Assembly (NCBI GenBank): GCA_041663045.1
Contig: JBAZRH010000001.1
Location: forward strand, 340,403-404,402
Direction of reading: 5' to 3'
Origin: Minisyncoccota bacterium
GTDB lineage: Bacteria; Patescibacteriota; Minisyncoccia; Phycocordibacterales; GWA1-40-21
Length of the DNA stretch: 64,000 bases
Numbering within the stretch: position 1 is the stretch's first letter; the number at the start of each line of letters is the position of its first letter. The position numbers and the translations under genes are program-made. Below the pieces are notes generated by a model, which was given only the letters and a program-made list of their open reading frames with translations, did not search any database and was not told the origin of the DNA. Below, piece after piece: positions 4,990 to 43,004 of the stretch.

Positions 4990-5035
4990 GTATATATTAT
5001 ATACCCAATGGTCCGTATAATCAAATACATTATTG

Positions 5036-5108
5036 TGGGCGGTGAGGGATTCGAACCCACGACATCAAGAACGTCAATCCTGCGCTCTACCAACTGAGCT
5101 AACCGCCC
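5036..5108 (-). tRNA. tRNA-Val (anticodon GAC)
   Basis: cloverleaf folded by hand: acceptor GGGCGGT/ACCGCCC, D-arm TAGCTCAGTTGGTAGAGC, anticodon loop TTGACGT, T-loop TTCGAAT (one U-U mismatch in T-stem). Confidence 0.8.
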
Positions 5109-5154
5109 AAATTTTCTTTAGAGATATTAGCACAAAAAAGCCAAAAAACAAATT

Positions 5155-5583
5155 GCGGTGTGTATTATACAAAGTTCGAATGTATTTTGAAAGCAACCCT
5201 GATGCCGACTAATCGCACGCGCGGAGCGCGTGGTGGCTCTAAACTGCCTCGTACGCTCGTATCGTTCCGCCACCGCCTCGCAAAGCCTCGGCGGAAACCC
5301 CGAAAGAAAAACACTCCTTGCATTTCTGATTTGGCGGGGGTGAAATTTCTTTTGAAAAAGGAAAGGGTGTTTTTCTTTCGGGGTTCTGCCCTCCAAGTAT
5401 TCGGGCAGGTGGCGGAACAATGCGGACGAAGTTTTGGCAAAACTATTTTTTGGGGAGGAAAGGATTTGCCAAAACTTCGGCTGATTTGTTTTTGAATTCG
5501 GATGTCGCAAGCGGAGGAGGAGGGGTTTGGGGAGGAATTTTCCATTTGCTCCTCTTTTTGTTTTGGGGGAATTCGGGGCGGAC
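5155..5583. repeat. left copy of a 429-bp perfect inverted repeat (partner 9304..9732) bracketing the R-M cassette
   Basis: ORF 5160..5495(+) is identical in protein sequence to ORF 9392..9727(-). Position x pairs with 14887-x. Boundaries checked by nucleotide comparison. GC-richer than surroundings, with internal long imperfect hairpin 5264..5420. Confidence 0.9.
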
Positions 5584-5602
5584 TTCTACAAAAATCTTAT
5601 CA

Positions 5603-5974
5603 TCAACTATCGTTCGTGCCAACTTCTGCTTCACTAATGGTTTGGTAATTTCCACCGATAACTCTGTCCTTGCCCTGACTTGATAGTGCTTGATAAGATT
5701 TTTCTATGTCTTTACTACTAGATCGTAAAGTTCCGATTGTACTTTTGTATTCGCTAATTACATCTTTATAACTTTCACGAATTTGATTTGAAAAGAAAGA
5801 GATTATTGTATAAAGCAATCCTACAGAAATTGAAATTGTTCCTAAAATGCCACGCGGACTTGTAAAATTATTTGCTCCATTCAAGAGCCAGCAACCTGCA
5901 AGAAGCGTGATAAATAACACCAGTATAGATTGAAGTTCAATTTTTTTAATAAGTTCTTGCCACATATTATTCAA
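5603..5974 (-). CDS. hypothetical small membrane protein (island cargo)
   Basis: 123 aa; hydrophobic segment ILVLFITLLAGCWLL; last gene of the minus-strand cassette operon. Confidence 0.4.
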   Translation of the reverse strand: MNNMWQELIKKIELQSILVLFITLLAGCWLLNGANNFTSPRGILGTISISVGLLYTIISFFSNQIRESYKDVISEYKSTIGTLRSSSKDIEKSYQALSSQGKDRVIGGNYQTISEAEVGTNDS

Positions 5975-6620
5975 AGGTGCTATTTATCACGCTCAAAAAT
6001 CCATTATCATCCGCTAAGTATTGTTTGAAACTTTTAAGTGTTGCTGATATATCGCCAATTTCAATTTCTCCAGCTTGAAATACATCAACATCAAAAAGAA
6101 TGCCTAGGGTTTTTGCCTCGTCGTTTTTTACAACAGGTTGTATTACTAAATTTGCGCTAAAATCTTTTCCAGTTTTTACTTCAAGACGAATCACAGACGG
6201 CTTGGTTTCCTTAATAACAGTAAATTTCTTCAAATACTCATCTTGTTTTGCTTGGTCTGCAAATTCATATACAAAATAATTCCGCCAACCAATTCGGCTT
6301 ATTTTTTCAACTTCTAATATCTTTGAAATTGTCTCTGCCTCCTTTGAGAATAGAGTTGAGATCATATCCAACGAATCTGGTTCAGCAAATTTCGCCCACA
6401 CCGCTTGAGCGGTGATTTTTAATTGTTCAATTTTATCTTTCGGATCTTGAATAACTAACCCGTTGAGATTCATTGAAAACTGTGGGGCGGAATTCTTTTT
6501 GTGATAAGCATTCACGATTTCTCCCGCCTTATCAACATACTTAAAACCCTTAATCGTATTGACTTGAATAAACGATTCGGGGTTATTGAGCTTATTTAAT
6601 TTGGCGATTGTTTTGCTCAT
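5967..6620 (-). CDS. hypothetical protein (island cargo, unknown function)
   Basis: 217 aa; 8-nt overlap with downstream ORF suggests translational coupling; no motif recognised. Confidence 0.45.
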   Translation of the reverse strand: MSKTIAKLNKLNNPESFIQVNTIKGFKYVDKAGEIVNAYHKKNSAPQFSMNLNGLVIQDPKDKIEQLKITAQAVWAKFAEPDSLDMISTLFSKEAETISKILEVEKISRIGWRNYFVYEFADQAKQDEYLKKFTVIKETKPSVIRLEVKTGKDFSANLVIQPVVKNDEAKTLGILFDVDVFQAGEIEIGDISATLKSFKQYLADDNGFLSVINSTFE

Positions 6621-6628
6621 AATTATTT

Positions 6629-7426
6629 TTAGTCTATTTTTGTTTCAATTATCTTTTTGAACTTCTTTTCTAACTCTGGTCTTATTTCTTCTCCAACTTC
6701 TTCATAAATTTTGATTAAATCCTCAAAAGTACCGGCTCCACCAAAATAATCCCAAAAATCTTTTCCAATGAGAAAGTCGTTACCTTTGTCGAAAAATTTA
6801 ATACATGTCCATCGTTGGTATTCTTGTGGTGCGTAAGGATTATAATACATGCCTAAAAATATTTTCACCCTTTTACCCTCTCTTGCTTTCATAGCGTAAA
6901 TCTCTAAAAGATCTCTCTTTGCAGCCCTCATTTCATTTTTATTTGGCTTAGGTCCTTTTATCTCGAAATATATTTCTTCGCCGTTATCTCGTTCAAGATA
7001 AAGATCAACAGTTTGAATTCTATCAACTAAATCCTTACTGTCCTGACTTGCATTATAGATTTCTTCTGACTCTTTTTTATGACTTGGCTCTCTCTTTACA
7101 CTATCAAGATCACTGAGAATATTCTCAAATGTTCGCTGTGCTTCGTGTGTAATTTTTCCTTGCAATTTCTCTGTTCCTTGTAGTTTTTTTGCTACCTTAA
7201 AATTTTCTTTGGCAATGATTTTCGCAACTGATTCATGCCAACTACCAAGTGCGGTTTCGCAACCATGTATAAATCCTTTTGCTAAGTAACCCTTCTTTGT
7301 GAAAAGGGCATATTGAAAAGGTTTTGCTGAATCCTCATCGCTTAAATCATACTCCGCAATCTTCCTTAAGATTTTCTCTTTGAGAAATTGGTAAACCTCA
7401 ATTTTTGATTTTTCAGATAAAGCCAT
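6629..7426 (-). CDS. putative Type II restriction endonuclease (candidate PD-(D/E)xK nuclease)
   Basis: 265 aa, immediately downstream of the methyltransferase in the same orientation; VDLYLERDNGEEIYFEIKGPK resembles a D...E.K nuclease core. Assignment is by position and weak motif only. Confidence 0.4.
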   Translation of the reverse strand: MALSEKSKIEVYQFLKEKILRKIAEYDLSDEDSAKPFQYALFTKKGYLAKGFIHGCETALGSWHESVAKIIAKENFKVAKKLQGTEKLQGKITHEAQRTFENILSDLDSVKREPSHKKESEEIYNASQDSKDLVDRIQTVDLYLERDNGEEIYFEIKGPKPNKNEMRAAKRDLLEIYAMKAREGKRVKIFLGMYYNPYAPQEYQRWTCIKFFDKGNDFLIGKDFWDYFGGAGTFEDLIKIYEEVGEEIRPELEKKFKKIIETKID

Positions 7427-7430
7427 ATGA

Positions 7431-9005
7431 TTATTTTACTTTAAAATGAAATATAATTTCTGAATACGGATTTCGATCGCGTTCCGTTCTGTTCAATACT
7501 GGTCGCTTAAACTGATTGACAATCTTCATTCCCGCCTTTTCCGCAATTTCTGGGTAGAGATTATATTTATCATTTGCCACAAGAAAAATGTCAAAATCTG
7601 TTTTGAGGTATTGCTTACAGTTATTTAACACATCTGCAATCCCTTGTGCATATGACCGGCGAGCCTCCATTCCTTGCCCTTTGTATAGCGGCCCAATTTC
7701 TAAATCATCCTTGCGCTTAAATCCAAGAAGGTCATATGCGTAAGCGTGTTGCTCGTGATAATCAATCTGCCCTACATAAGGAGGTGAGCAAAAAATACCA
7801 GCTATTTTTTGTTTTTTTAGAATTTTAGAAAATTCTGGATTTTGCTTCTCTATTTTCTCAAAAATATCTATCGCCCTTGAATCACCAGCTAAAACGGAAT
7901 GGTGAACTGGTTTTCGTAATCTACTAAATTCTCTGATTCTGTTTAATGTATCAAGAGCATAGCGATTGAGCATACTCGTTATCGAGAAAAGAGGTTTGCA
8001 GATTTTTTTGTGTTTATAACAGTAATAAGTCGTAAGTTGAGGTTCTTTGAGGGTTGCGAGGTCGCTGTGCGTAGTCGCACGACACGATCTGATTGTCCTG
8101 CTCAAAATCAGAGCTAACATTTTGCGGGTTTTGACGTCTTTTTCTTGTTTGATTGTTTGGAAAACATGATCTATCTCTCGACGAACATTATCCATAAACC
8201 AAACATCAAGGAAAGAATCGGATTTGTCCTGTTTTAACTTAATTGAATACTTTTTTAGTAGTTTCTGATATACAGGCAAAAACTCCTTCTCTTTTTCTGT
8301 GGCAAATTTATTTTCATCAAAACTTCCTTGATTGATTTTGTATTTAAAGTCAGAACCCGGAAAATGTACCAAGTTAAATTTGGCAAGTTCGGCCAAAAGT
8401 TCGTTTTCAAAATCTTGAATTTTATTGTCATGATCAAAAGAATCAAGTGAAGCAATTAGTTTTTTAATCGCTTTTTGTAAGTACTCATCGTTATAGTGTG
8501 TTGCCTTACAACTTGAAATCATGCAGTTAAATTCAGAAACATCTATACCAACGGAATGAATACCCATTTCAAGCGATTGAATAATTGTTGTCCCAGAACC
8601 CAAGAATGGATCAAGAATAACATCACCTGCTTTGAAATAGGCTTCTTTCTTAAAATCATCAGTATGATTATCTATAAAATATTCAACAAGTTGTGGAATG
8701 TATTTACCTTTATATGGGTGGAGTCGGTGTACATGTTTTGTGGTATCCACCTCTCTTAAATTATCAAAAGAAAGCGTCCAATTTAAATCATCGCCTAGAT
8801 TTTTTTTCCAACTTACTTCGCGCGTGCCATTATAAGAATTATAATATTTTTTTAAATCATTCAAATCAACCATGGTCGAGCCGTTCTCTCCATGTTTTTT
8901 TACTTTTCCATACTGGACAAGGTAAGAAATGTTCGTAGGTAAAACATCTTTCTTGAGATGTTCTGATGCCCATTTTGATGCTTCGGGGATAGTTACTAAT
9001 GACAT
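7431..9005 (-). CDS. DNA amino-methyltransferase (alpha-class; motif I DPFLGSGTT, motif IV SPPY suggests N4-cytosine or N6-adenine)
   Basis: 524 aa; FxGxG-type AdoMet motif near residue 135 and catalytic SPPY near residue 405 with a long target-recognition region between. Confidence 0.8.
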   Translation of the reverse strand: MSLVTIPEASKWASEHLKKDVLPTNISYLVQYGKVKKHGENGSTMVDLNDLKKYYNSYNGTREVSWKKNLGDDLNWTLSFDNLREVDTTKHVHRLHPYKGKYIPQLVEYFIDNHTDDFKKEAYFKAGDVILDPFLGSGTTIIQSLEMGIHSVGIDVSEFNCMISSCKATHYNDEYLQKAIKKLIASLDSFDHDNKIQDFENELLAELAKFNLVHFPGSDFKYKINQGSFDENKFATEKEKEFLPVYQKLLKKYSIKLKQDKSDSFLDVWFMDNVRREIDHVFQTIKQEKDVKTRKMLALILSRTIRSCRATTHSDLATLKEPQLTTYYCYKHKKICKPLFSITSMLNRYALDTLNRIREFSRLRKPVHHSVLAGDSRAIDIFEKIEKQNPEFSKILKKQKIAGIFCSPPYVGQIDYHEQHAYAYDLLGFKRKDDLEIGPLYKGQGMEARRSYAQGIADVLNNCKQYLKTDFDIFLVANDKYNLYPEIAEKAGMKIVNQFKRPVLNRTERDRNPYSEIIFHFKVK

Positions 9006-9009
9006 AGTT

Positions 9010-9222
9010 TTATTTTATCAGATTATCAATGCTTATTCCTAGCCCCTCGGCGATTTTGGTTACAGTTTGGATTGACGGTTTTGTTATAACATTCGATTCA
9101 ATCTTGGTCAGTGTTGTGTAGGGAATATCGCACTTTCTCGCAAGAGCGTCCTGTGTCAATCCTTGCTTTGCGCGAAAGACTTTTATTTTATCCCCAATTT
9201 CTTTATTTTGTTTGCTTTCCAT
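9010..9222 (-). CDS. HTH XRE-family controller (C) protein of the R-M cassette
   Basis: 70 aa Cro/C1-type HTH (GLTQDALARKCDIPYTTLTKIE), first gene of the cassette, 4 nt upstream of the MTase. Confidence 0.7.
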   Translation of the reverse strand: MESKQNKEIGDKIKVFRAKQGLTQDALARKCDIPYTTLTKIESNVITKPSIQTVTKIAEGLGISIDNLIK

Positions 9223-9303
9223 AGTATGATAGTATAAGTATGAGCGTTGAAACTAACCCTCACAACTATACTAACATGAATTTAATCTTTTCTCAATTTT
9301 TTT

Positions 9304-9732
9304 GTCCGCCCCGAATTCCCCCAAAACAAAAAGAGGAGCAAATGGAAAATTCCTCCCCAAACCCCTCCTCCTCCGCTTGCGACATCCGAATTCAAAAACA
9401 AATCAGCCGAAGTTTTGGCAAATCCTTTCCTCCCCAAAAAATAGTTTTGCCAAAACTTCGTCCGCATTGTTCCGCCACCTGCCCGAATACTTGGAGGGCA
9501 GAACCCCGAAAGAAAAACACCCTTTCCTTTTTCAAAAGAAATTTCACCCCCGCCAAATCAGAAATGCAAGGAGTGTTTTTCTTTCGGGGTTTCCGCCGAG
9601 GCTTTGCGAGGCGGTGGCGGAACGATACGAGCGTACGAGGCAGTTTAGAGCCACCACGCGCTCCGCGCGTGCGATTAGTCGGCATCAGGGTTGCTTTCAA
9701 AATACATTCGAACTTTGTATAATACACACCGC
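9304..9732. repeat. right copy of the 429-bp inverted repeat (partner 5155..5583)
   Basis: reverse complement identical to 5155..5583; ORFs inside (9240..9877, 9282..9467, 9392..9727) mirror those in the left copy and are judged non-coding. Confidence 0.9.
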
Positions 9733-9848
9733 CAAAAATCGAAATCAGTTTTTGAAGCCAAAATGGGGTCGCGCCGAAGGCGCGACACTAATGCATTCCC
9801 CCCGCCGAATTCAGAATCCAAAAGGGTTTTCCACGCTCCGCGTGGCTC
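9729..9848. repeat. left copy of a 120-bp inverted repeat (partner 11253..11372) bracketing the serine recombinase gene
   Basis: 9729+11372=21101 symmetry verified base by base; this copy is an inverted duplicate of the tRNA-Ser 3' terminal CCGCC plus its 115-nt trailer. Confidence 0.9.
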
Positions 9849-9869
9849 CTCGTTTGCCAATACAAAATT

Positions 9870-11432
9870 ATGATTGATCACACCAGAAAATTTTTTATAT
9901 ACACTCGTAAATCTACCGATACTGAGGATCGGCAAGTTAGAAGCATTTCGGATCAACTGGCCGAGCTTAAAGAGTTAGCGGTTAAAGAACAAATCGAGGT
10001 TGTTGATATTTTTGTGGAAAAACAAACCGCTAAAGCCCCGGGTCGGCCAGTATTTAATGAAATGCTTCTCCGTATCGAAGCAAATGAGGCAAATGGAATT
10101 TTAGCGTGGCACCCCGACAGATTGGCGAGAAATAGTGTTGATGGTGGAAAAATTATCTATTTGCTCGATACGGGAAAAATTGCCGAGCTAAAATTTCCAA
10201 CTTTCTGGTGTGATACAACACCGCAAGGAAAGTTTATGCTCTCAATCGCTTTTTCTCAATCCAAGTATTACGTGGATAACTTGTCGGAGAATATCAAGCG
10301 CGGACACAGAAACAAAGTGAAGGAAGGAATATGGCCTCAAATGTCCCCGATAGGTTATGTCAATGTGAAAGGTGGTGGAATTATCCCTCACGCAGATTTA
10401 GCACCACTTGTTAAAAAGACATTTGAGGCATATTCAACTGGAAACTTCACTTTGCGGGAAGTCCGCGACAAGTTTAATGGGCTTGGATTGAAAAGAAAAA
10501 GCGGTAGAGAGCTTGCGGTGTCGAATTATCAAAAACTTCTCAAAAATCCTATTTACACCGGACTAATGAGATATAACGGAGAGATTTTTGAGGGAAAGCA
10601 CGAACCGATTATTTCAAAGAAACTTTTTGATCAATGTCAAGAAGTGATGATGAGAAAATCTAAACCTCACTCGAAAGGGCTAAAGCCATTTTTGTACAGA
10701 GGATTTTTCCGTTGCGGAGAATGTGGCTGTTTTATAACTACCGAGCAACAAAAAGGTCATCGCTATCTCCGCTGTACCAAACGGAAAAATCCTTGTACTC
10801 AAAAATATGTTCGTGAGGAGCTCATCACTTCTCAAATTCAAAATGAAATCAAAAAAGTTTCTTTGCCTCTCGATTGGACGGAGTGGATGATTGCCGAAAA
10901 TGCAAAAGATCGGCAATCAGAAGTCCAATCGAGTTCGCTTTTTGTGGATTCTGCAAAAGCCGATATTTCTCTTTTAGATTCCAAGATTGAGAAGCTGATG
11001 ACGGCGTATTTAGAGAACGCACTTTCAATTGAAGAATATCGCGACGCAAAAAGTGCGCTGGTTGCCTCAAAACAGCTTCTCAAAGAGAAATTATCGGCTT
11101 TTGAGCAAAAAGCGAATAATCGGTTCGAACTTACCGAAAAGTTTTTGAAATACAATATGGAATTGGCAAACGAGGGAACAAATGAAGAAAAACTTCATTT
11201 GTTCAAAAAAGTCGGTTCGAACTTTTTAATTAAGGATCGAACCGTACTTTTTGAGCCACGCGGAGCGTGGAAAACCCTTTTGGATTCTGAATTCGGCGGG
11301 GGGAATGCATTAGTGTCGCGCCTTCGGCGCGACCCCATTTTGGCTTCAAAAACTGATTTCGATTTTTGGCGGAAGTGGGAGGATTCGAACCTCCGATGCC
11401 CTTTCGAGCATGCCGCTTTTCGAGAGCGGTGA
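9870..11432 (+). CDS. large serine recombinase (resolvase/invertase N-terminal domain + recombinase domain + zinc ribbon)
   Basis: 520 aa; N-terminal YTRKSTDTEDRQ catalytic-serine region, CGECGC...C zinc-ribbon-like segment, C-terminal coiled coil. Its last ~57 codons are encoded by the inverted repeat and by the antisense of tRNA-Ser. Confidence 0.85.
   Translation: MIDHTRKFFIYTRKSTDTEDRQVRSISDQLAELKELAVKEQIEVVDIFVEKQTAKAPGRPVFNEMLLRIEANEANGILAWHPDRLARNSVDGGKIIYLLDTGKIAELKFPTFWCDTTPQGKFMLSIAFSQSKYYVDNLSENIKRGHRNKVKEGIWPQMSPIGYVNVKGGGIIPHADLAPLVKKTFEAYSTGNFTLREVRDKFNGLGLKRKSGRELAVSNYQKLLKNPIYTGLMRYNGEIFEGKHEPIISKKLFDQCQEVMMRKSKPHSKGLKPFLYRGFFRCGECGCFITTEQQKGHRYLRCTKRKNPCTQKYVREELITSQIQNEIKKVSLPLDWTEWMIAENAKDRQSEVQSSSLFVDSAKADISLLDSKIEKLMTAYLENALSIEEYRDAKSALVASKQLLKEKLSAFEQKANNRFELTEKFLKYNMELANEGTNEEKLHLFKKVGSNFLIKDRTVLFEPRGAWKTLLDSEFGGGNALVSRLRRDPILASKTDFDFWRKWEDSNLRCPFEHAAFRER
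11253..11372. repeat. right copy of the 120-bp inverted repeat; doubles as the tRNA-Ser 3' trailer
   Basis: see 9729..9848; contains a GGGGTCGCG block shared with other tRNA-trailer modules. Confidence 0.9.
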
Positions 11433-11456
11433 TTTCAACCACTCACCCACACTTCC
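11367..11456 (-). tRNA. tRNA-Ser (anticodon CGA), CCA encoded
   Basis: acceptor GGAAGTG/CACTTCC, 3-bp D-stem, anticodon stem CCGCT/AGCGG with loop CTCGAAA, long variable arm, T-arm GGAGGTTCGAATCCTCC, discriminator G + CCA. Confidence 0.85.
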
Positions 11457-11521
11457 ATGTTTGTAAAGATAACATCTTTTTGCCTTTTTTTCAAAAAAAG
11501 GTTATATTGTTTGAGCCGTTT

Positions 11522-11596
11522 GGCCCTATCGTCTAATGGTTAGGACACGGCCTTTTCAAGGCTGTAATCAGGGTTCGATTCCCTGTAGGGTCACCA
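11522..11596 (+). tRNA. tRNA-Glu (anticodon TTC), CCA encoded
   Basis: acceptor GGCCCTA/TAGGGTC, D-arm TCGTCTAATGGTTAGGAC, anticodon loop TTTTCAA, T-loop TTCGATT. Confidence 0.85.
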
Positions 11597-11745
11597 AAAA
11601 TTTACACAGTAATATTTTTGTGATTTTAAAATGTAAAAGTCTTTACATTTTAAAAGAATCGAAAGACGGACTGAGTAAAGACGAAGGAGTCGGGGTCGAG
11701 AGATTTTTCAGCAGAAAAATACTCGTGACCGATTCACCTTAATAA
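11597..11745 (+). repeat. tRNA-trailer module downstream of tRNA-Glu (family member, lacks a clean terminal direct repeat)
   Basis: contains GGAGTCGGGGTCGAGAG and CGTGACCGATTCACC blocks matching GAGGCGGGGTCGCGA and TTGTGACCGATTCA in the tRNA-Gly and tRNA-Lys modules; AT-rich hairpin right after the tRNA. Confidence 0.55.
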
Positions 11746-11751
11746 AATCAA

Positions 11752-11784
11752 ATGAAAATCTTAGGCATTGAAACCAGTTGCGAC
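11752..11784 (+). other. orphan duplicate of the first 11 codons of tsaD (MKILGIETSCD) with 7 synonymous differences
   Basis: ATGAAAATCTTAGGCATTGAAACCAGTTGCGAC versus the real start ATGAAGATTCTAGGAATCGAGACCAGTTGCGAT at 11863. It is followed by a short out-of-context reading frame. Confidence 0.8.
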
Positions 11785-11862
11785 CCCGTAAAAATTTATC
11801 AGAATAAACTAACGGGGCGAGAAGTGGTATTTTTGTATTTTATCTGCTAAATTATACTTAAC

Positions 11863-13059
11863 ATGAAGATTCTAGGAATCGAGACCAGTTGCGATGAAAC
11901 AGCAGTTTGCTTAATTGAAACCGACAAAGAAGTCGGCAATATTAAAATACTTGGTAATCAGCTATATTCTCAAATCGCTTTACATGCACAATATGGCGGA
12001 GTTTTCCCTATGATGGCAAAAAGAGAACATGCAAAAAATCTTATTCCACTGTTTGAAAGATGTTTGGAAGAAGCGAGCTGTATAAAAGAAGTAAGATCTC
12101 CTATCCTAGAATCAGCAAGAGAAAAACTCAAAGAACTCCTTGTAAAAGAAATGGATATTTTTGATCAGATTATTGAGCTTGCGGAGAAAATCGAAAAGCC
12201 AAATATAGATGCGATTGCCGTGACAAACGGCCCGGGGCTTGAGCCGGCACTTTGGGTCGGTGTGAATTTTGCAAAAGCACTTGAAATTATTTGGAATATT
12301 CCTATCATCCCCACAAATCATATGGAGGGACATATCCTTGTCGCAGCTATTGATAAAATAAAAACCGAGGAGTCACCTTCCAAGGCTAAGGAAACACCTC
12401 AATTTTTATTAAAAGAGATTAAATTCCCCGCTATCGCTCTTCTTATAAGTGGTGGGCATACCCAGCTTGTCCTCGCAAAAGACAATCTTCAATATGAAAT
12501 CGTCGGCAATACGAGAGACGACGCTGTGGGCGAAGCTTTTGATAAAGTTGCAAGGATTCTCGGTCTTCCATACCCGGGTGGACCACAGATTTCTAAACTC
12601 GCCGAAAAAGAAAGGGCAGAAAATCCAGATAAAAAACCGCCATATCCCCTACCTCGCCCCATGATCCATTCGGGTGATTTGGATTTTTCATTTTCCGGTT
12701 TGAAAACCGCGGTGCTTTATACTGTTAAAAAAATTCCCGAGATGACCGAAGAGATCAAACAAGAAATCGCCTGTGAATTTGAAAATGCCGTCTTGGAAGT
12801 GTTGACTAAGAAAACATTTGAAGCCGTCAGAAAATATAGTGCGAAAACAATAATAATTGGTGGAGGTGTCAGCGCAAATAAAAAGATAAGAAACGACTTT
12901 ACCGAAAAATCCAAAGCAGAAGATGTTGAACTGATGATTCCTGAAGTAAATGCTTCCACAGATAATGCCTTTATGATAGCCCTTGCCGGAGCGATAAATT
13001 TAGAAGCCGGTAAGAAAACCGCTACGGATTTCAGGGCAAGTGGGAATCTATCGCTTTAA
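11863..13059 (+). CDS. tsaD: tRNA N6-adenosine threonylcarbamoyltransferase TsaD (Kae1/TsaD family)
   Basis: 398 aa; MKILGIETSCDET N-terminus, HMEGH metal-binding motif, Gly-rich ASKHA fold segments; carries an insertion relative to typical 340-aa TsaD. Confidence 0.85.
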   Translation: MKILGIETSCDETAVCLIETDKEVGNIKILGNQLYSQIALHAQYGGVFPMMAKREHAKNLIPLFERCLEEASCIKEVRSPILESAREKLKELLVKEMDIFDQIIELAEKIEKPNIDAIAVTNGPGLEPALWVGVNFAKALEIIWNIPIIPTNHMEGHILVAAIDKIKTEESPSKAKETPQFLLKEIKFPAIALLISGGHTQLVLAKDNLQYEIVGNTRDDAVGEAFDKVARILGLPYPGGPQISKLAEKERAENPDKKPPYPLPRPMIHSGDLDFSFSGLKTAVLYTVKKIPEMTEEIKQEIACEFENAVLEVLTKKTFEAVRKYSAKTIIIGGGVSANKKIRNDFTEKSKAEDVELMIPEVNASTDNAFMIALAGAINLEAGKKTATDFRASGNLSL

Positions 13060-16911: not shown

Positions 16912-16918
16912 TGTAAAA

Positions 16919-16946
16919 GCGGCGCACGAAGTGCGCCGCTTTTTTG
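16919..16946 (+). terminator. rho-independent terminator (GCGGCGCAC-GAAG-GTGCGCCGC + TTTTTT)
   Basis: perfect 9-bp GC-rich stem, 4-nt loop, T-tract, directly after hsp20 stop. Confidence 0.8.
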
Positions 16947-17783: not shown

Positions 17784-17822
17784 TTATTGTTGAATATAAC
17801 ATAAAAACCAGTTAGAAACAAA

Positions 17823-17850
17823 AAGCGGCGCACTTCGTGCGCCGCTTTTT
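17823..17850. terminator. bidirectional terminator hairpin (AGCGGCGCAC-TTCG-GTGCGCCGCT flanked by A-run and T-run)
   Basis: perfect palindrome with UUCG loop between tRNA-Arg and the glutaredoxin-like gene. Confidence 0.7.
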
Positions 17851-42896: not shown

Positions 42897-42919
42897 ACTT
42901 TTTATTATAACACCTTCTG

Positions 42920-43004
42920 CGGAGACGGCGAGATTCGAACTCGCGGGAGCTTTCACCCCACTCGCTTTCCAAGCGAGCGCACTAGACCACTATGCGACGT
43001 CTCC
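42920..43004 (-). tRNA. tRNA-Ser (anticodon GGA), long variable arm
   Basis: acceptor GGAGACG/CGTCTCC, anticodon stem CTCGC/GCGAG with loop TTGGAAA, variable arm TGGGGTGAAAGCTCCC, T-loop TTCGAAT. Confidence 0.8.

Follow-up and report, generated by a model that had tools for sequence, protein, structure and literature searches.

The 64,000-nucleotide stretch of Minisyncoccota DNA analysed here (the window) carries a recombinase gene that is set between inverted repeats and runs into a tRNA-Ser gene. The tRNA-Ser(CGA) gene lies on the minus strand, at 11367..11456 in the ARAGORN call and at 11370-11456 in the Rfam match, which leaves out the CCA and scores 55.5 bits, while the open reading frame (ORF) of a large serine recombinase (LSR) occupies 9870..11432 on the plus strand, encodes 520 residues in the integrated state and stops 66 nt inside the tRNA gene. 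A repeat search of the window returned two inverted repeats: the arms of one, 120 nt long, 1404 nt apart and 100% complementary, which far exceeds chance expectation, lie at 9729-9848 and 11253-11372, and those of the other, 429 nt long and also perfect, at 5155-5583 and 9304-9732. The two repeats abut and have four nucleotides, GCGG/CCGC, in common. The shorter repeat had been reported in an earlier note on this DNA and is real; the longer one, which changes the reading of the locus, had been missed there. From left to right, we refer to the arms as a' (5155..5583, the left terminal copy), a (9304..9732, internal), b (9729..9848, internal, forming the 5' leader of the recombinase gene) and b' (11253..11372, the right terminal copy).

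Between a' and a lies a cargo region (5584..9303, minus strand) in which ORF calls and Pfam place, all on the minus strand, two ORFs without known function (5603-5974 and 5967-6620), a TdeIII-type restriction endonuclease (6629-7426), an N6/N4 DNA methylase (7431-9005) and an Xre-type helix-turn-helix (HTH) protein (9010-9222). The HTH gene is the sole cargo gene common to relatives of the locus, being present in 13 of 20 elements with a 13:1 orientation bias of the cargo end that carries it; elsewhere the cargo includes restriction-modification genes, a D-Ala-D-Ala ligase, a glycosyltransferase, Fic, an AAA_15 ATPase with an HNH nuclease, and others. The cargo examined contains no phage, conjugation or Rep-like genes. 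Outside a' come 46 nt of host DNA (5109..5154, minus strand), T-rich on the tRNA strand, followed by the host gene for tRNA-Val(GAC) (5035..5108, minus strand; ARAGORN and Rfam); the same left-hand neighbourhood recurs in one related locus (L058), where the same site holds other cargo. Apart from the tRNAs, Rfam finds no RNA family in the a and b arms or anywhere in 9000-11900, and a known guide or structured RNA in the GC-rich stretch 9240-9870 was dropped as a candidate for want of an Rfam family. A tRNA remnant at the left flank of the a arm was ruled out, as neither spacing nor frame fits.

The recombinase and its relatives in CPR genomes

The recombinase has Resolvase, Recombinase and Zn_ribbon_recom domains (PF00239 at E = 7e-21 on residues 9-154, PF07508 at 2e-15 and PF13408 at 5e-8), which end near residue 327. 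Its YTRKST motif, with the catalytic serine, is invariant in 23 homologues, the structures 3g13 and 3guv in the PDB match its catalytic domain, and the recombinase and zinc-ribbon region of A118 integrase matches it at E = 2e-5, with the C-terminal region on residues 210-352. TP901-1 integrase is 26% identical over 97% of the query (residues 10-455), and this homology ends near residue 455. With an N-terminal catalytic domain and a C-terminal recombinase and zinc-ribbon region, the protein belongs, by sequence, to the large serine integrases. An AlphaFold model built from 40 close homologues has a mean pLDDT of 49 and served only to place the domain boundaries approximately and to suggest a helix at the terminus; at this low confidence it shows paired long helices at 333-433, a predicted coiled coil. 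The core comprises 461 residues, and the right repeat arm begins at codon 462; residues 462-501 come from b' and residues 502-520 from tRNA-Ser read antisense, the last 19 codons being devoid of protein conservation. The earlier claim that the frame runs on past the recognisable domains and ends within tRNA-Ser is thus borne out. A viral origin was considered and dropped: IMG/VR holds no relative, and the best phage and plasmid matches are merely 23-29% identical.

The same layout is found in 161 loci, namely the window and 160 related loci from public assemblies, all of which are metagenome assemblies and most of which are labelled CPR. Their recombinases are 80-93% identical, in lineages labelled as distant, and in a comparison with flanking host proteins the recombinase is 83-86% identical where the host proteins are 52-68% identical. 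Counting close relatives only, a scan of 185,579 species-representative genomes places the family in at least 278 of them, and it occurs in more than 587 metagenome contigs. The positions of the two b arms with respect to the gene recur in 114 other loci, 63 of the pairs being perfect; a arms of 189-429 nt are present in 31 loci, and the elements measure 3.5-8.5 kb. Sister LSR families at 38-49% identity are built in the same way, with two repeats, and one of them sits at tRNA-Ala; these families conserve the DNA motif CGAACCCATTTT. The literature searched contained no published description of this family, which is abundant in ultra-small (CPR) bacteria, or of its layout. The CPR bacteria (Patescibacteria) have tiny genomes with few recognised mobile elements, and the elements of this family bring defence and cell-envelope cargo.

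In about 125 of the 161 loci, the recombinase gene has a tRNA-Ser gene on its 3' side, and 84 of these also have a recognisable a arm on the 5' side. Targeting is strict: the tRNA calls at the junctions are nearly all tRNA-Ser 3' ends, with the anticodons GGA (36), CGA (31), TGA (28), GCT (25) and ACT (9) when both flanks are counted, the exceptions being one tRNA-Ala and one tRNA-Trp. Unusual 3' flanks in seven loci (L025, L032, L036, L044, L112, L142 and L150) contain no Rfam family. In consensus contigs, the roughly 125 loci with the tRNA on the 3' side compare with 7 that have it on the 5' side, four of them on that side only (L016, L029, L043 and L159) and three on both sides (L047, L057 and L072); two further loci have a arms on both sides (L017 and L163). 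Short-read assembly may traverse a perfect 120-nt repeat wrongly, and some of the minority orientations may be artefacts of this kind; the orientations of L043 and L016 are safe, because their arms have diverged.

Junctions, target genes and the displaced C-terminal tail

The shared GCGG occurs on the plus strand at 5155..5158 and, as a direct repeat, at 11369..11372, where it coincides with tRNA positions 71-74, and in inverted form at 9729-9732. Around the inverted copy, positions 9713-9746 (minus strand) are the exact reverse complement of the end of b', GCGG and the start of a', and this a-CCGC-b consensus holds among the loci. The sequence allows the three junctions to be read as a putative attL (host trailer joined to a'), an apparently intact, inverted attP (a joined to b) and a putative attR (b' joined to the tRNA), with b' as the P side and a' as the P' side of a split attP and with the 46 nt at 5109..5154 as the displaced original tRNA-Ser trailer, that is, the B arm of attL. 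In relatives, the flank outside a' has terminator-like hairpins followed by T runs, and since these are expected in such a place, this flank is read as the host tRNA trailer. The overlap of the a and b arms is 4-9 nt across the loci and never smaller than GCGG; the element ends share with the target only these 4-9 nt, and the junctions appear to fit the logic of attP x attB recombination. In the outer part of attB, the trailer half-site varies between loci, which is unusual among LSR attB sites.

As in tRNA-gene islands, the insertion is at the 3' end of the gene, the tRNA is intact and the integrase gene is tRNA-proximal; the CCA of tRNA-Ser(CGA) and the sequence downstream of it come from the element. 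An unoccupied target exists in the same window, the tRNA-Ser(GGA) gene at 42919..43004 (minus strand), where GCGG is followed by host sequence in an empty, attB-like site (...TTCT GCGG AGACGGCGAGATTCGAAC...). A degenerate empty-site pattern for the occupied locus (tRNA-Val, 35-60 nt, tRNA-Ser(CGA)) had no match in the metagenome collection, and look-ups with the exact flanking proteins led only to two short Logan contigs of SRR18595301 (L161 and L162), both of which break off next to the element. The contigs yielded no circular contig and no excised circle; such a circle cannot be revealed by them, because its junction would be identical to the internal attP-type site.

Read over the crossover into the a arm, the recombinase frame stays open and continues into a conserved tail of 15-19 codons, which in the window is CVLYKVRMYFESNPDAD; these final 17 codons and the stop (CVLYKVRMYFESNPDAD*) lie displaced at 5159..5212 on the plus strand. 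In 64 unique arms the tail follows the pattern [CY][VLS]L[DNY][KE][VI]R[MTN][YF]F[EGA]xNP without a stop, and variability is highest at its third codon positions (0.81, the other two being at 0.58 and 0.43). All of 90 arms have their frame-0 stop at codon 15-19, for which a permutation test is suggestive only (p = 0.057). The tail also stands at the end of 10 of the 120 closest homologues, and in one protein (P0004) it is identical to that of the window; where the contig measures only about 2 kb, some of the proteins with a native tail may have been created by wrong traversal of the repeat in short-read assembly. On these grounds the tail looks coding, and its conservation across the crossover would place attP inside the recombinase gene, so that integration swaps the C-terminus. 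Its conservation could also reflect constraint at the DNA level, for it overlaps a promoter-like motif and what is probably a recombinase binding site; the promoter-like site, at 9696-9723 in the a arm, reads over the core toward the recombinase gene. The b' arm contains a covarying hairpin, rich in GC, with a T-rich stretch after it, and this could stop transcription short of the tail; a canonical cUUCGg tetraloop in the b hairpin was dropped, since the pairing register gives a loop of 3 or 5 nt. The open frame through b' was likewise set aside as proof of coding: none of 70 arms has an in-frame stop, yet two antisense frames are mostly open as well.

The approximately 40 residues encoded by the repeat accompany it in 70 of 70 clean arms, and the case that would have spoken against the earlier note, the same C-terminal residues at a locus without the repeat, is absent among these; the residues that follow them depend on the sequence joined at the crossover. 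Its claim that inversion between the copies would alter the 3' end of the gene also agrees with the sequence, in that the recombinase ORF of the window would, in the opposite orientation, end in ...FWRCVLYKVRMYFESNPDAD (ORF 9675..9956, minus strand), the tail also borne by the 10 homologues mentioned above.

Integration, inversion and rival explanations

We consider it probable that 5155-11372 is a 6.2-kb integrative element which an LSR has put beside the tRNA-Ser gene; 9729-11456 would be the right-hand junction (attR) of this element. The LSR would have inserted the element between tRNA-Ser(CGA) and its own trailer by strand exchange within GCGG, using an attP located in the 3' end of the recombinase gene itself. 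In the unintegrated form, the ORF would pass through the b' arm and the crossover and end in the a' arm after a further 17 codons, those of CVLYKVRMYFESNPDAD, and their stop; integration would split attP, lead the ORF into tRNA-Ser antisense and leave the native last codons behind at 5159-5212. The whole putative attP region (a and b, 9304-9848) is present a second time as an inverted copy, between the divergent Xre-type HTH gene and the recombinase gene; this gives rise to the perfect inverted repeats of 429 and 120 nt and to their abutting.

As to the purpose of the inverted duplication, we infer that the internal copy may act as a functional second attP, which would explain the recombinase genes flanked by tRNA-Ser on both sides, and that it may also hold a 3' end in reserve. 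An inversion with the b arms as its end points would rejoin the gene to a native tail and set it downstream of the tRNA. The element would presumably excise as a circle with two inverted, attP-bearing repeats; a symmetric circle with two attP sites does not predict the observed orientation bias, which counts against it unless selection is added. It is conceivable, and we propose it tentatively, that the inverted repeats are the ON/OFF device of a self-limiting, inversion-gated integrase in a mobile element that spreads in CPR without phage or conjugation genes. The recombinase would then require the native C-terminal helix encoded across attP; integration would exchange this helix for tRNA-antisense residues, disarming the enzyme and locking the element, and such locking would explain the approximately 95% orientation bias. 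Rare homologous inversion between the 120-nt arms would rebuild the full-length gene from the spare attP and tail upstream, now downstream of the tRNA-Ser promoter, so that excision would be re-armed, and the intact internal attP could capture a second tRNA-Ser gene, with chromosome segments being inverted or foreign DNA taken up. Such a switch, if true, would give a mobile element a novel means of governing its recombinase, and nature would offer in it compact integrases that are directed to tRNA-Ser and bring their own control of directionality. It would also point to a source of chromosomal inversions between tRNA-Ser genes and would account for the breaks of many CPR assemblies at these loci.

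Several other explanations of the locus have to be weighed against a mobile element of this kind. Inverted repeats are a known signature of mis-assembly and several assemblies break near the element, but the probability that the repeats are chimeric assembler joins is practically nil, given that 160 independent contigs, which differ in project and assembler and include records deposited as complete chromosomes (OY969413.1 and OZ246398.1), share the same architecture with identical arm positions. The earlier note took the locus for an attachment-site relic, which in decayed form would mean a tRNA-Ser trailer duplicated in inverted orientation upstream of the recombinase and an ORF extension that is an accident of one locus. 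It rightly saw a recombinase attachment site in the repeat boundary at the tRNA 3' end, as the half-site logic of the attL-, attP- and attR-like junctions suggests, and both this boundary and the lack of protein conservation in the tRNA-antisense codons agree with a relic. The repeat, however, holds 6 nt of the ARAGORN tRNA-Ser call (CCGCCA) and not the last 5 tRNA nucleotides; the 114 nt past the tRNA, supposed to be trailer, are the b arm of the element, a unit of the same length and position beside different tRNA-Ser genes in more than 100 loci and many CPR lineages; and the native trailer region does not adjoin the tRNA but lies beyond the opposite end of the element, at 5109-5154. With both repeats perfect and the element ends complete, what is found is a regular, conserved architecture, apparently a complete element with attL, internal attP and attR, and a relic is highly improbable.

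The two unique segments, each bounded by its own inverted repeat, might instead be modular cassettes, with b-recombinase-b' as an autonomous IS-like unit, a'-cargo-a as a separate passenger moved in trans, and the joint as their abutting ends. The b arms are indeed mosaics of interchangeable modules, the 5' flank is neither a arm nor tRNA in L046 and L145 and of yet another kind in L081, an orphan a-arm end occurs in L104, and elements that share a site may differ completely in cargo. All junctions are nevertheless of attP, attL or attR type; the a arm-tRNA joint that separate cassettes predict is absent among the junctions flanking the recombinase, and the predicted b arm-trailer joint has no clear case (L046 is ambiguous). 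The orientation biases of the recombinase (about 125:7) and of the HTH end of the cargo, the strict tRNA-Ser targeting and the fact that known serine transposases can do without long terminal repeats further make this arrangement unlikely. Slightly less probable is a switch that works mainly by programmed inversion, like Hin or a shufflon, in which the recombinase flips the 1.4-kb segment and thereby alternates its C-terminus, tRNA-Ser transcription or both, with mobility secondary or lost. Inverted repeats do flank the recombinase gene, both orientations occur in nature, many assemblies break at the arms, and the arms are identical within a locus and diverged between loci; against this, the enzyme is of the large serine integrase type rather than a small invertase, the repeats of 120 and 429 nt are not short sites, about 95% of the consensus assemblies have one orientation, attP x attR is a non-permitted LSR pair, and the variable cargo, the many tRNA-Ser targets and a recombinase more conserved than its host flanks point to mobility.

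Comparison with known systems

Taken as an integrative element, the locus is close to the large serine integrases of temperate phages and integrative elements (TP901-1, A118, Bxb1 and phiC31), with which it has in common the domain set, apparently the half-site logic of attP x attB giving attL and attR, and few shared bases at the crossover. Its enzyme is only about 26% identical to theirs, however, its putative attP lies inside the integrase ORF, it keeps an additional attP region of 320-550 bp in inverted orientation, it targets the 3' end of any tRNA-Ser gene, and it measures 3.5-8.5 kb, the cargo examined containing neither phage nor conjugation genes. An attP within the integrase ORF, together with a long inverted duplicate of the attP region that is kept perfect in each copy, makes the layout unusual among serine integrase elements. 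The integrases of SSV1-type archaeal viruses are encoded by an int gene that contains attP and is partitioned on integration; the element resembles them in having its site within the integrase ORF, a tRNA gene as target and an integrase gene that is changed on integration. Those enzymes are archaeal tyrosine recombinases whose gene is split into two large parts, whereas here a serine recombinase loses merely its last 15-19 codons and the element carries an inverted spare of that end.

The yeast 2-micron plasmid has the FRT target of its FLP recombinase inside 599-bp inverted repeats, and plastids have similar repeats. The predicted circle would be alike, with two unique segments between two long, identical inverted repeats that bear the recombinase target, and similar in size (about 6.2 kb); yet FLP is a tyrosine recombinase and the 2-micron plasmid replicates autonomously without integrating, whereas in our element no replication gene is seen and the circular topology is predicted from the integrated form. 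Tycheposons of Prochlorococcus are reportedly small, cargo-carrying integrative elements at tRNA genes of streamlined genomes, with no classical transfer machinery. The present element is likewise small, cargo-carrying and located at tRNA genes, while recombinase families, hosts and targets differ, and to our knowledge neither nested inverted repeats nor an internal attP have been reported for tycheposons. The serine transposases IS607 and Tn4451/TnpX differ from it in their low target specificity, nearly all targets here being tRNA-Ser 3' ends, and in that the element holds an intact internal copy of the joint.

Invertible segments and shufflons, such as those of Hin, Gin, Cin, Min and R64 Rci, and of PinQ (PMC12529663), also combine inverted repeats with a recombinase gene that lies within the segment between them or adjoins it, and flipping this segment exchanges a 3' coding end. 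They employ short sites and small serine invertases (or, for Rci, a tyrosine recombinase) and switch surface genes of host or phage, whereas here the exchanged end is that of the recombinase itself, the element is apparently mobile and one orientation dominates; the enzymes of the Hin/Gin/Cin/Pin type, of about 190 residues with a C-terminal HTH and sites of about 26 bp, also contrast with a core of 461 residues. In Thermococcales, the integrase of the resident element pTN3, an archaeal tyrosine recombinase, reportedly recombines a second tRNA gene and thereby inverts the chromosome between tRNA genes (PMC5495485). The three loci in which the recombinase lies between two tRNA-Ser genes (L047, L057 and L072) offer a parallel to this, with the difference that the second event would here use a dedicated internal copy of attP.

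Layout of the element beside tRNA-Ser

The right end of the locus is organized around a perfect 120-nt inverted repeat, identified by a repeat search of the window, whose arms (b at 9729-9848 and b' at 11253-11372, the prime denoting the terminal copy) lie 1404 nt apart on either side of the core segment (9849-11252) of a large serine recombinase (LSR) gene. The recombinase ORF (9870..11432, plus strand, 520 aa; Pfam domains Resolvase, Recombinase and Zn_ribbon_recom) enters the right arm at codon 462 and stops 66 nt inside tRNA-Ser(CGA), a minus-strand gene placed at 11367-11456 by ARAGORN and at 11370-11456 by Rfam, and the right arm takes in the final CCGCCA (6 nt) of the tRNA as called by ARAGORN. 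The repeat, ORF, and tRNA calls bear out what an earlier note had observed here, namely the repeat, the passage of the ORF through its right arm, and the antisense ending in tRNA-Ser, whereas the interpretation attached to these observations holds only in part. The repeat unit had been taken for the tRNA-Ser trailer, but the 114 nt that follow tRNA-Ser(CGA) are element DNA, because the layout and the junctions recur in relatives and the flank beyond the far end is unrelated host DNA, and the original trailer lies at 5109-5154; what had been read as an attachment-site relic is one end, attR, of an integrative element that is complete and measures 6.2 kb (5155-11372).

A repeat search also revealed another perfect inverted repeat, 429 nt long (5155-5583 and 9304-9732), which abuts the 120-nt repeat, the two having 4 nt in common (CCGC, 9729-9732). 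From left to right, the locus consists of tRNA-Val (5035-5108, minus strand), 46 nt of T-rich host DNA (5109-5154), the a' arm (5155-5583), the cargo (5584-9303), the a arm (9304-9732), the b arm, the recombinase core segment, the b' arm, and tRNA-Ser, with the cargo comprising, according to ORF calls and Pfam, two unknown ORFs, a TdeIII-type restriction enzyme, a DNA methylase, and a 70-aa Xre-type HTH protein. The tetranucleotide GCGG occurs as a direct repeat at 5155-5158 and 11369-11372 and in inverted orientation at 9729-9732. Read as half-sites, the left junction joins host DNA to a' and the right junction joins b' to the tRNA, while the internal junction of a and b is the exact reverse complement of the joined element ends (b' to a'); in serine-integrase terms, the three junctions read as attL, attR, and an attP that is intact and inverted. 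The a arm of the window, at 429 nt, is twice the usual length (median 207) and contains two long imperfect palindromes, one at 9397-9471 (mirrored at 5416-5490) and one at 9502-9591 (mirrored at 5296-5385), with arms of 26 and 30 nt; their only partial occurrence in other a arms suggests inserted hairpin modules.

Recurrence, target, and cargo among relatives

Homologues of the recombinase number in the thousands, the best 120 all being at least 80% identical, and both the few source-named homologues among these 120 and most genome records encoding relatives carry the label of the ultra-small CPR/Patescibacteria. We fetched related loci (designated by L numbers) from two sources, species-representative genomes and metagenome contigs, 80 from each. 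Both b arms occupy the same positions relative to the gene in 114 loci, 63 of the pairs being perfect, and a arms of 189-429 nt are also present in 31 loci (15 perfect), where the cargo spans 1.5-6.3 kb and the whole element 3.5-8.5 kb. Arms are concertedly identical within a locus, as against 70-93% identity between loci. The same layout is found in OY969413.1 and OZ246398.1, both deposited as complete chromosomes, and an assembly artefact is therefore excluded.

A tRNA-Ser gene forms the 3' flank of the recombinase gene in ~125 loci, with all isoacceptors being used (tRNA calls on either flank: GGA 36, CGA 31, TGA 28, GCT 25, ACT 9, one Ala, and one Trp). The consensus of the junction between b' and the tRNA is ...TTTTGGCGG followed by AGrGGGAGGGATTCGAACC (tRNA antisense), and that of the junction between b and a is ...TTTTGGCGG followed by TGTGTATTGGACGAAGTTCGAATG of the a arm. 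The overlap of the a and b arms across loci is 4-9 nt and always comprises at least GCGG; at an unoccupied tRNA-Ser(GGA) in the window, GCGG is followed by host trailer. Outside a' lies unrelated host DNA, which in relatives often holds a hairpin and a T run, as would be expected of the tRNA's own terminator. In one relative (L058), an element occupies the same tRNA-Val / tRNA-Ser(CGA) / tRNA-Glu site as in the window with other cargo, its recombinase being ~83% identical and the flanking host genes 52-68%.

The cargo differs wholly among elements and includes restriction-modification genes, D-Ala-D-Ala ligase, glycosyltransferase, Fic, and nucleotidyltransferase genes, an AAA_15 ATPase with an HNH nuclease, and membrane proteins; the only recurrent cargo gene is a small HTH gene adjoining the a arm (13 of 20 elements), flipped once, in L037. 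The anatomy of the element and its conservation, its targeting of tRNA-Ser, and the turnover of its cargo are directly supported.

In five loci (L044, L150, L142, L025, and L032), what adjoins the b' arm is something other than a tRNA or an a arm, and the 3' flanks of the recombinase gene share a motif (...GGGTTAGGTACCC...CCTTGTAAGGGTAT) that was matched by neither Rfam nor ARAGORN and may represent an unrecognized alternative target. ARAGORN also reports tRNA-Ser with anticodon ACT, that is, with A at position 34, in L006, L013, L027 (7498-7587), L029, L031, L047, L057, and L060, mostly beside tRNA-Ser(GCT), nine of these genes being integration targets; in bacteria, A at this position is unusual outside tRNA-Arg(ACG).

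The recombinase C terminus and the b arm

Recognizable integrase homology stops near residue 455-460 and the b' arm starts at codon 462: the alignment to TP901-1 integrase (26% identity) covers residues 10-455, and the C-terminal region of A118 integrase also matches. In an AlphaFold model of low confidence (pLDDT 49), residues 445-500 are poorly ordered and a terminal helix spans 494-512. The recombinase frame is open through b' in 70/70 arms, which is by itself a weak sign of coding because two antisense frames are mostly open too. More informative is the frame read past the crossover into the a arm, the native tail, which yields the stop-free peptide [CY][VLS]L[DNY][KE][VI]R[MTN][YF]F[EGA]xNP in 64 unique arms, with third codon positions varying most, and which reaches an in-frame stop at codon 15-19 in 90/90 unique longer arms, a regularity absent from the other two frames; a permutation test of the codon-position bias gave p = 0.057. 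The native tail ends 10 of the 120 closest homologues, and in one 92% identical protein (P0004) it is exactly the tail CVLYKVRMYFESNPDAD that the window encodes at the far-left end of the element (5159-5212, plus strand) and in the internal copy (9728-9675, minus strand); with this tail the recombinase would measure 518 aa, compared with 520 aa in the integrated form. We conclude from these comparisons that the native recombinase ORF probably spans attP and that integration would swap its last 15-19 residues for ones encoded antisense to the tRNA, which would explain why the homologues differ in length (490-647 aa) and in how they end. The open frame conserved across attP is directly supported, but constraint at the DNA level may contribute to the apparent coding signal of the tail, since the same bases carry a promoter-like motif (TTCAAA, 16 nt, TATAAT; window 9696-9723) that is moderately conserved elsewhere, and presumably also hold the recombinase binding site, and since part of the DNA motif is conserved in the sister families.

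The b arm has a modular, mosaic build, with a hairpin that does not vary (CCACGC...GCGTGG), a run of G, a second hairpin that is GC-rich, and an outer part of ~26 nt in some seven variants, every one of which ends in ...TTTTGGCGG or ...TTTGCGG. In 121 unique arms, the second hairpin is paired close to 100% and three consecutive pairs show two-sided compensatory changes (GC 91 / CG 30; CG 90 / GC 30; GC 65 / CG 30 / AT 25). The second hairpin is therefore selected as a structure, which is likewise directly supported, with terminator, protein site, and DNA cruciform as candidate roles.

Rearrangements, mechanism, and known systems

Several relatives depart from the common arrangement: tRNA-Ser lies 5' of the recombinase gene in L016, L029, L043, and L159, an orientation that in L016 and L043 is not an assembly ambiguity because their arms have diverged; the recombinase lies between two tRNA-Ser genes in L047, L057, and L072; and a arms on both sides give a native-tail ORF in L017 and L163 (the locus of homologue P0085), on contigs of 52 and 257 kb. 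All classifiable junctions are of attP, attL, or attR type; among the recombinase-flanking junctions, none joins an a arm directly to a tRNA and none clearly joins a b arm to a trailer, the possible exception being L046 with its decayed arms. This set fits ordinary serine-integrase site logic if one further assumption is made, an active internal inverted attP, in which case the double tRNA-Ser loci would be the expected product of attP(internal) x attB(second tRNA-Ser) and the double a-arm loci that of attR x attL between neighboring elements. In L104 (4951, minus strand, and 4999, plus strand), an orphan a-arm end faces away from the resident attL, 48 nt off and separated from it by a terminator-like hairpin, and may have been left behind by an insertion that was earlier or opposed.

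There is good support for a circular form being integrated by the recombinase through an attP x attB reaction that fell on tRNA positions 71-74 and kept the tRNA intact, and moderate support for that circle carrying two inverted a+b repeats with an attP in each, a 2-micron-like topology. A symmetric circle with two attP sites does not alone predict the bias of ~95% of loci toward the tail-replaced orientation, which is the main unexplained point. Hypothetically, the swap of the tail on integration could disarm the recombinase, and inversion between the b arms could restore the native gene, now downstream of the tRNA promoter; such a cycle would explain the bias.

The domains that define large serine recombinases were tested for and found, which places the protein in that family, and the junctions fit attP x attB recombination; the element appears to behave like a tRNA-gene genomic island. 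It has an invertible 3' coding end in common with Hin-type switches, long inverted repeats containing the recombination target with the 2-micron plasmid, and an attP inside the integrase gene with SSV-type elements; of these, Hin-type switches and SSV-type elements were set aside, together with IS607-/TnpX-type transposons, because defining features that were tested are absent, and the element is probably not a 2-micron plasmid either, no circular contig and no Rep-like cargo having been found. In the full-text literature collection that was searched, no description of the element family or its layout was found, which does not prove novelty. The double-repeat layout is shared by sister recombinase families at 38-49% identity (L026, 9305-10994; L001, 6574-8279; L084, 5620-7017), and the design therefore predates the element's own family; the sister element in L026 targets tRNA-Ala(GGC) with the core TGGTGG, its ORF likewise continuing into the tRNA antisense strand. 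The element family is widespread in CPR and has an unusual, self-referential architecture.

In many assemblies, contigs end at or beside the inverted-repeat arms (L005, L045, L069, L070, L161, L162, and many other locus ends), the L005 contig of 1404 nt being made up almost entirely of the core segment that the arms enclose, so the element repeatedly fragments CPR genome bins. The sequencing run SRR18595301, from which L161 and L162 come, contains the host genes that flank the element of the window. Element-bearing contigs with non-CPR record names (L014, L028, L032, L036, L053, L054, L069, L070, and L076), among them Gammaproteobacteria, Bdellovibrionales, Bacteroidota, and Lentisphaerae, are likely to reflect mis-binning or mislabelling. 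Elsewhere in the window, the first 32 nt of a tsaD-like ORF recur with 81% identity 111 nt upstream of the real start (11752-11783 / 11863-11894), in what looks like a duplicated 5' gene fragment, and two copies of AAAAGCGGCGCACGAAGTGCGCCGCTTTTT, a terminator-like perfect palindrome of 30 nt, lie 875 nt apart (16915-16944 and 17820-17849) on either side of a tRNA gene cluster.
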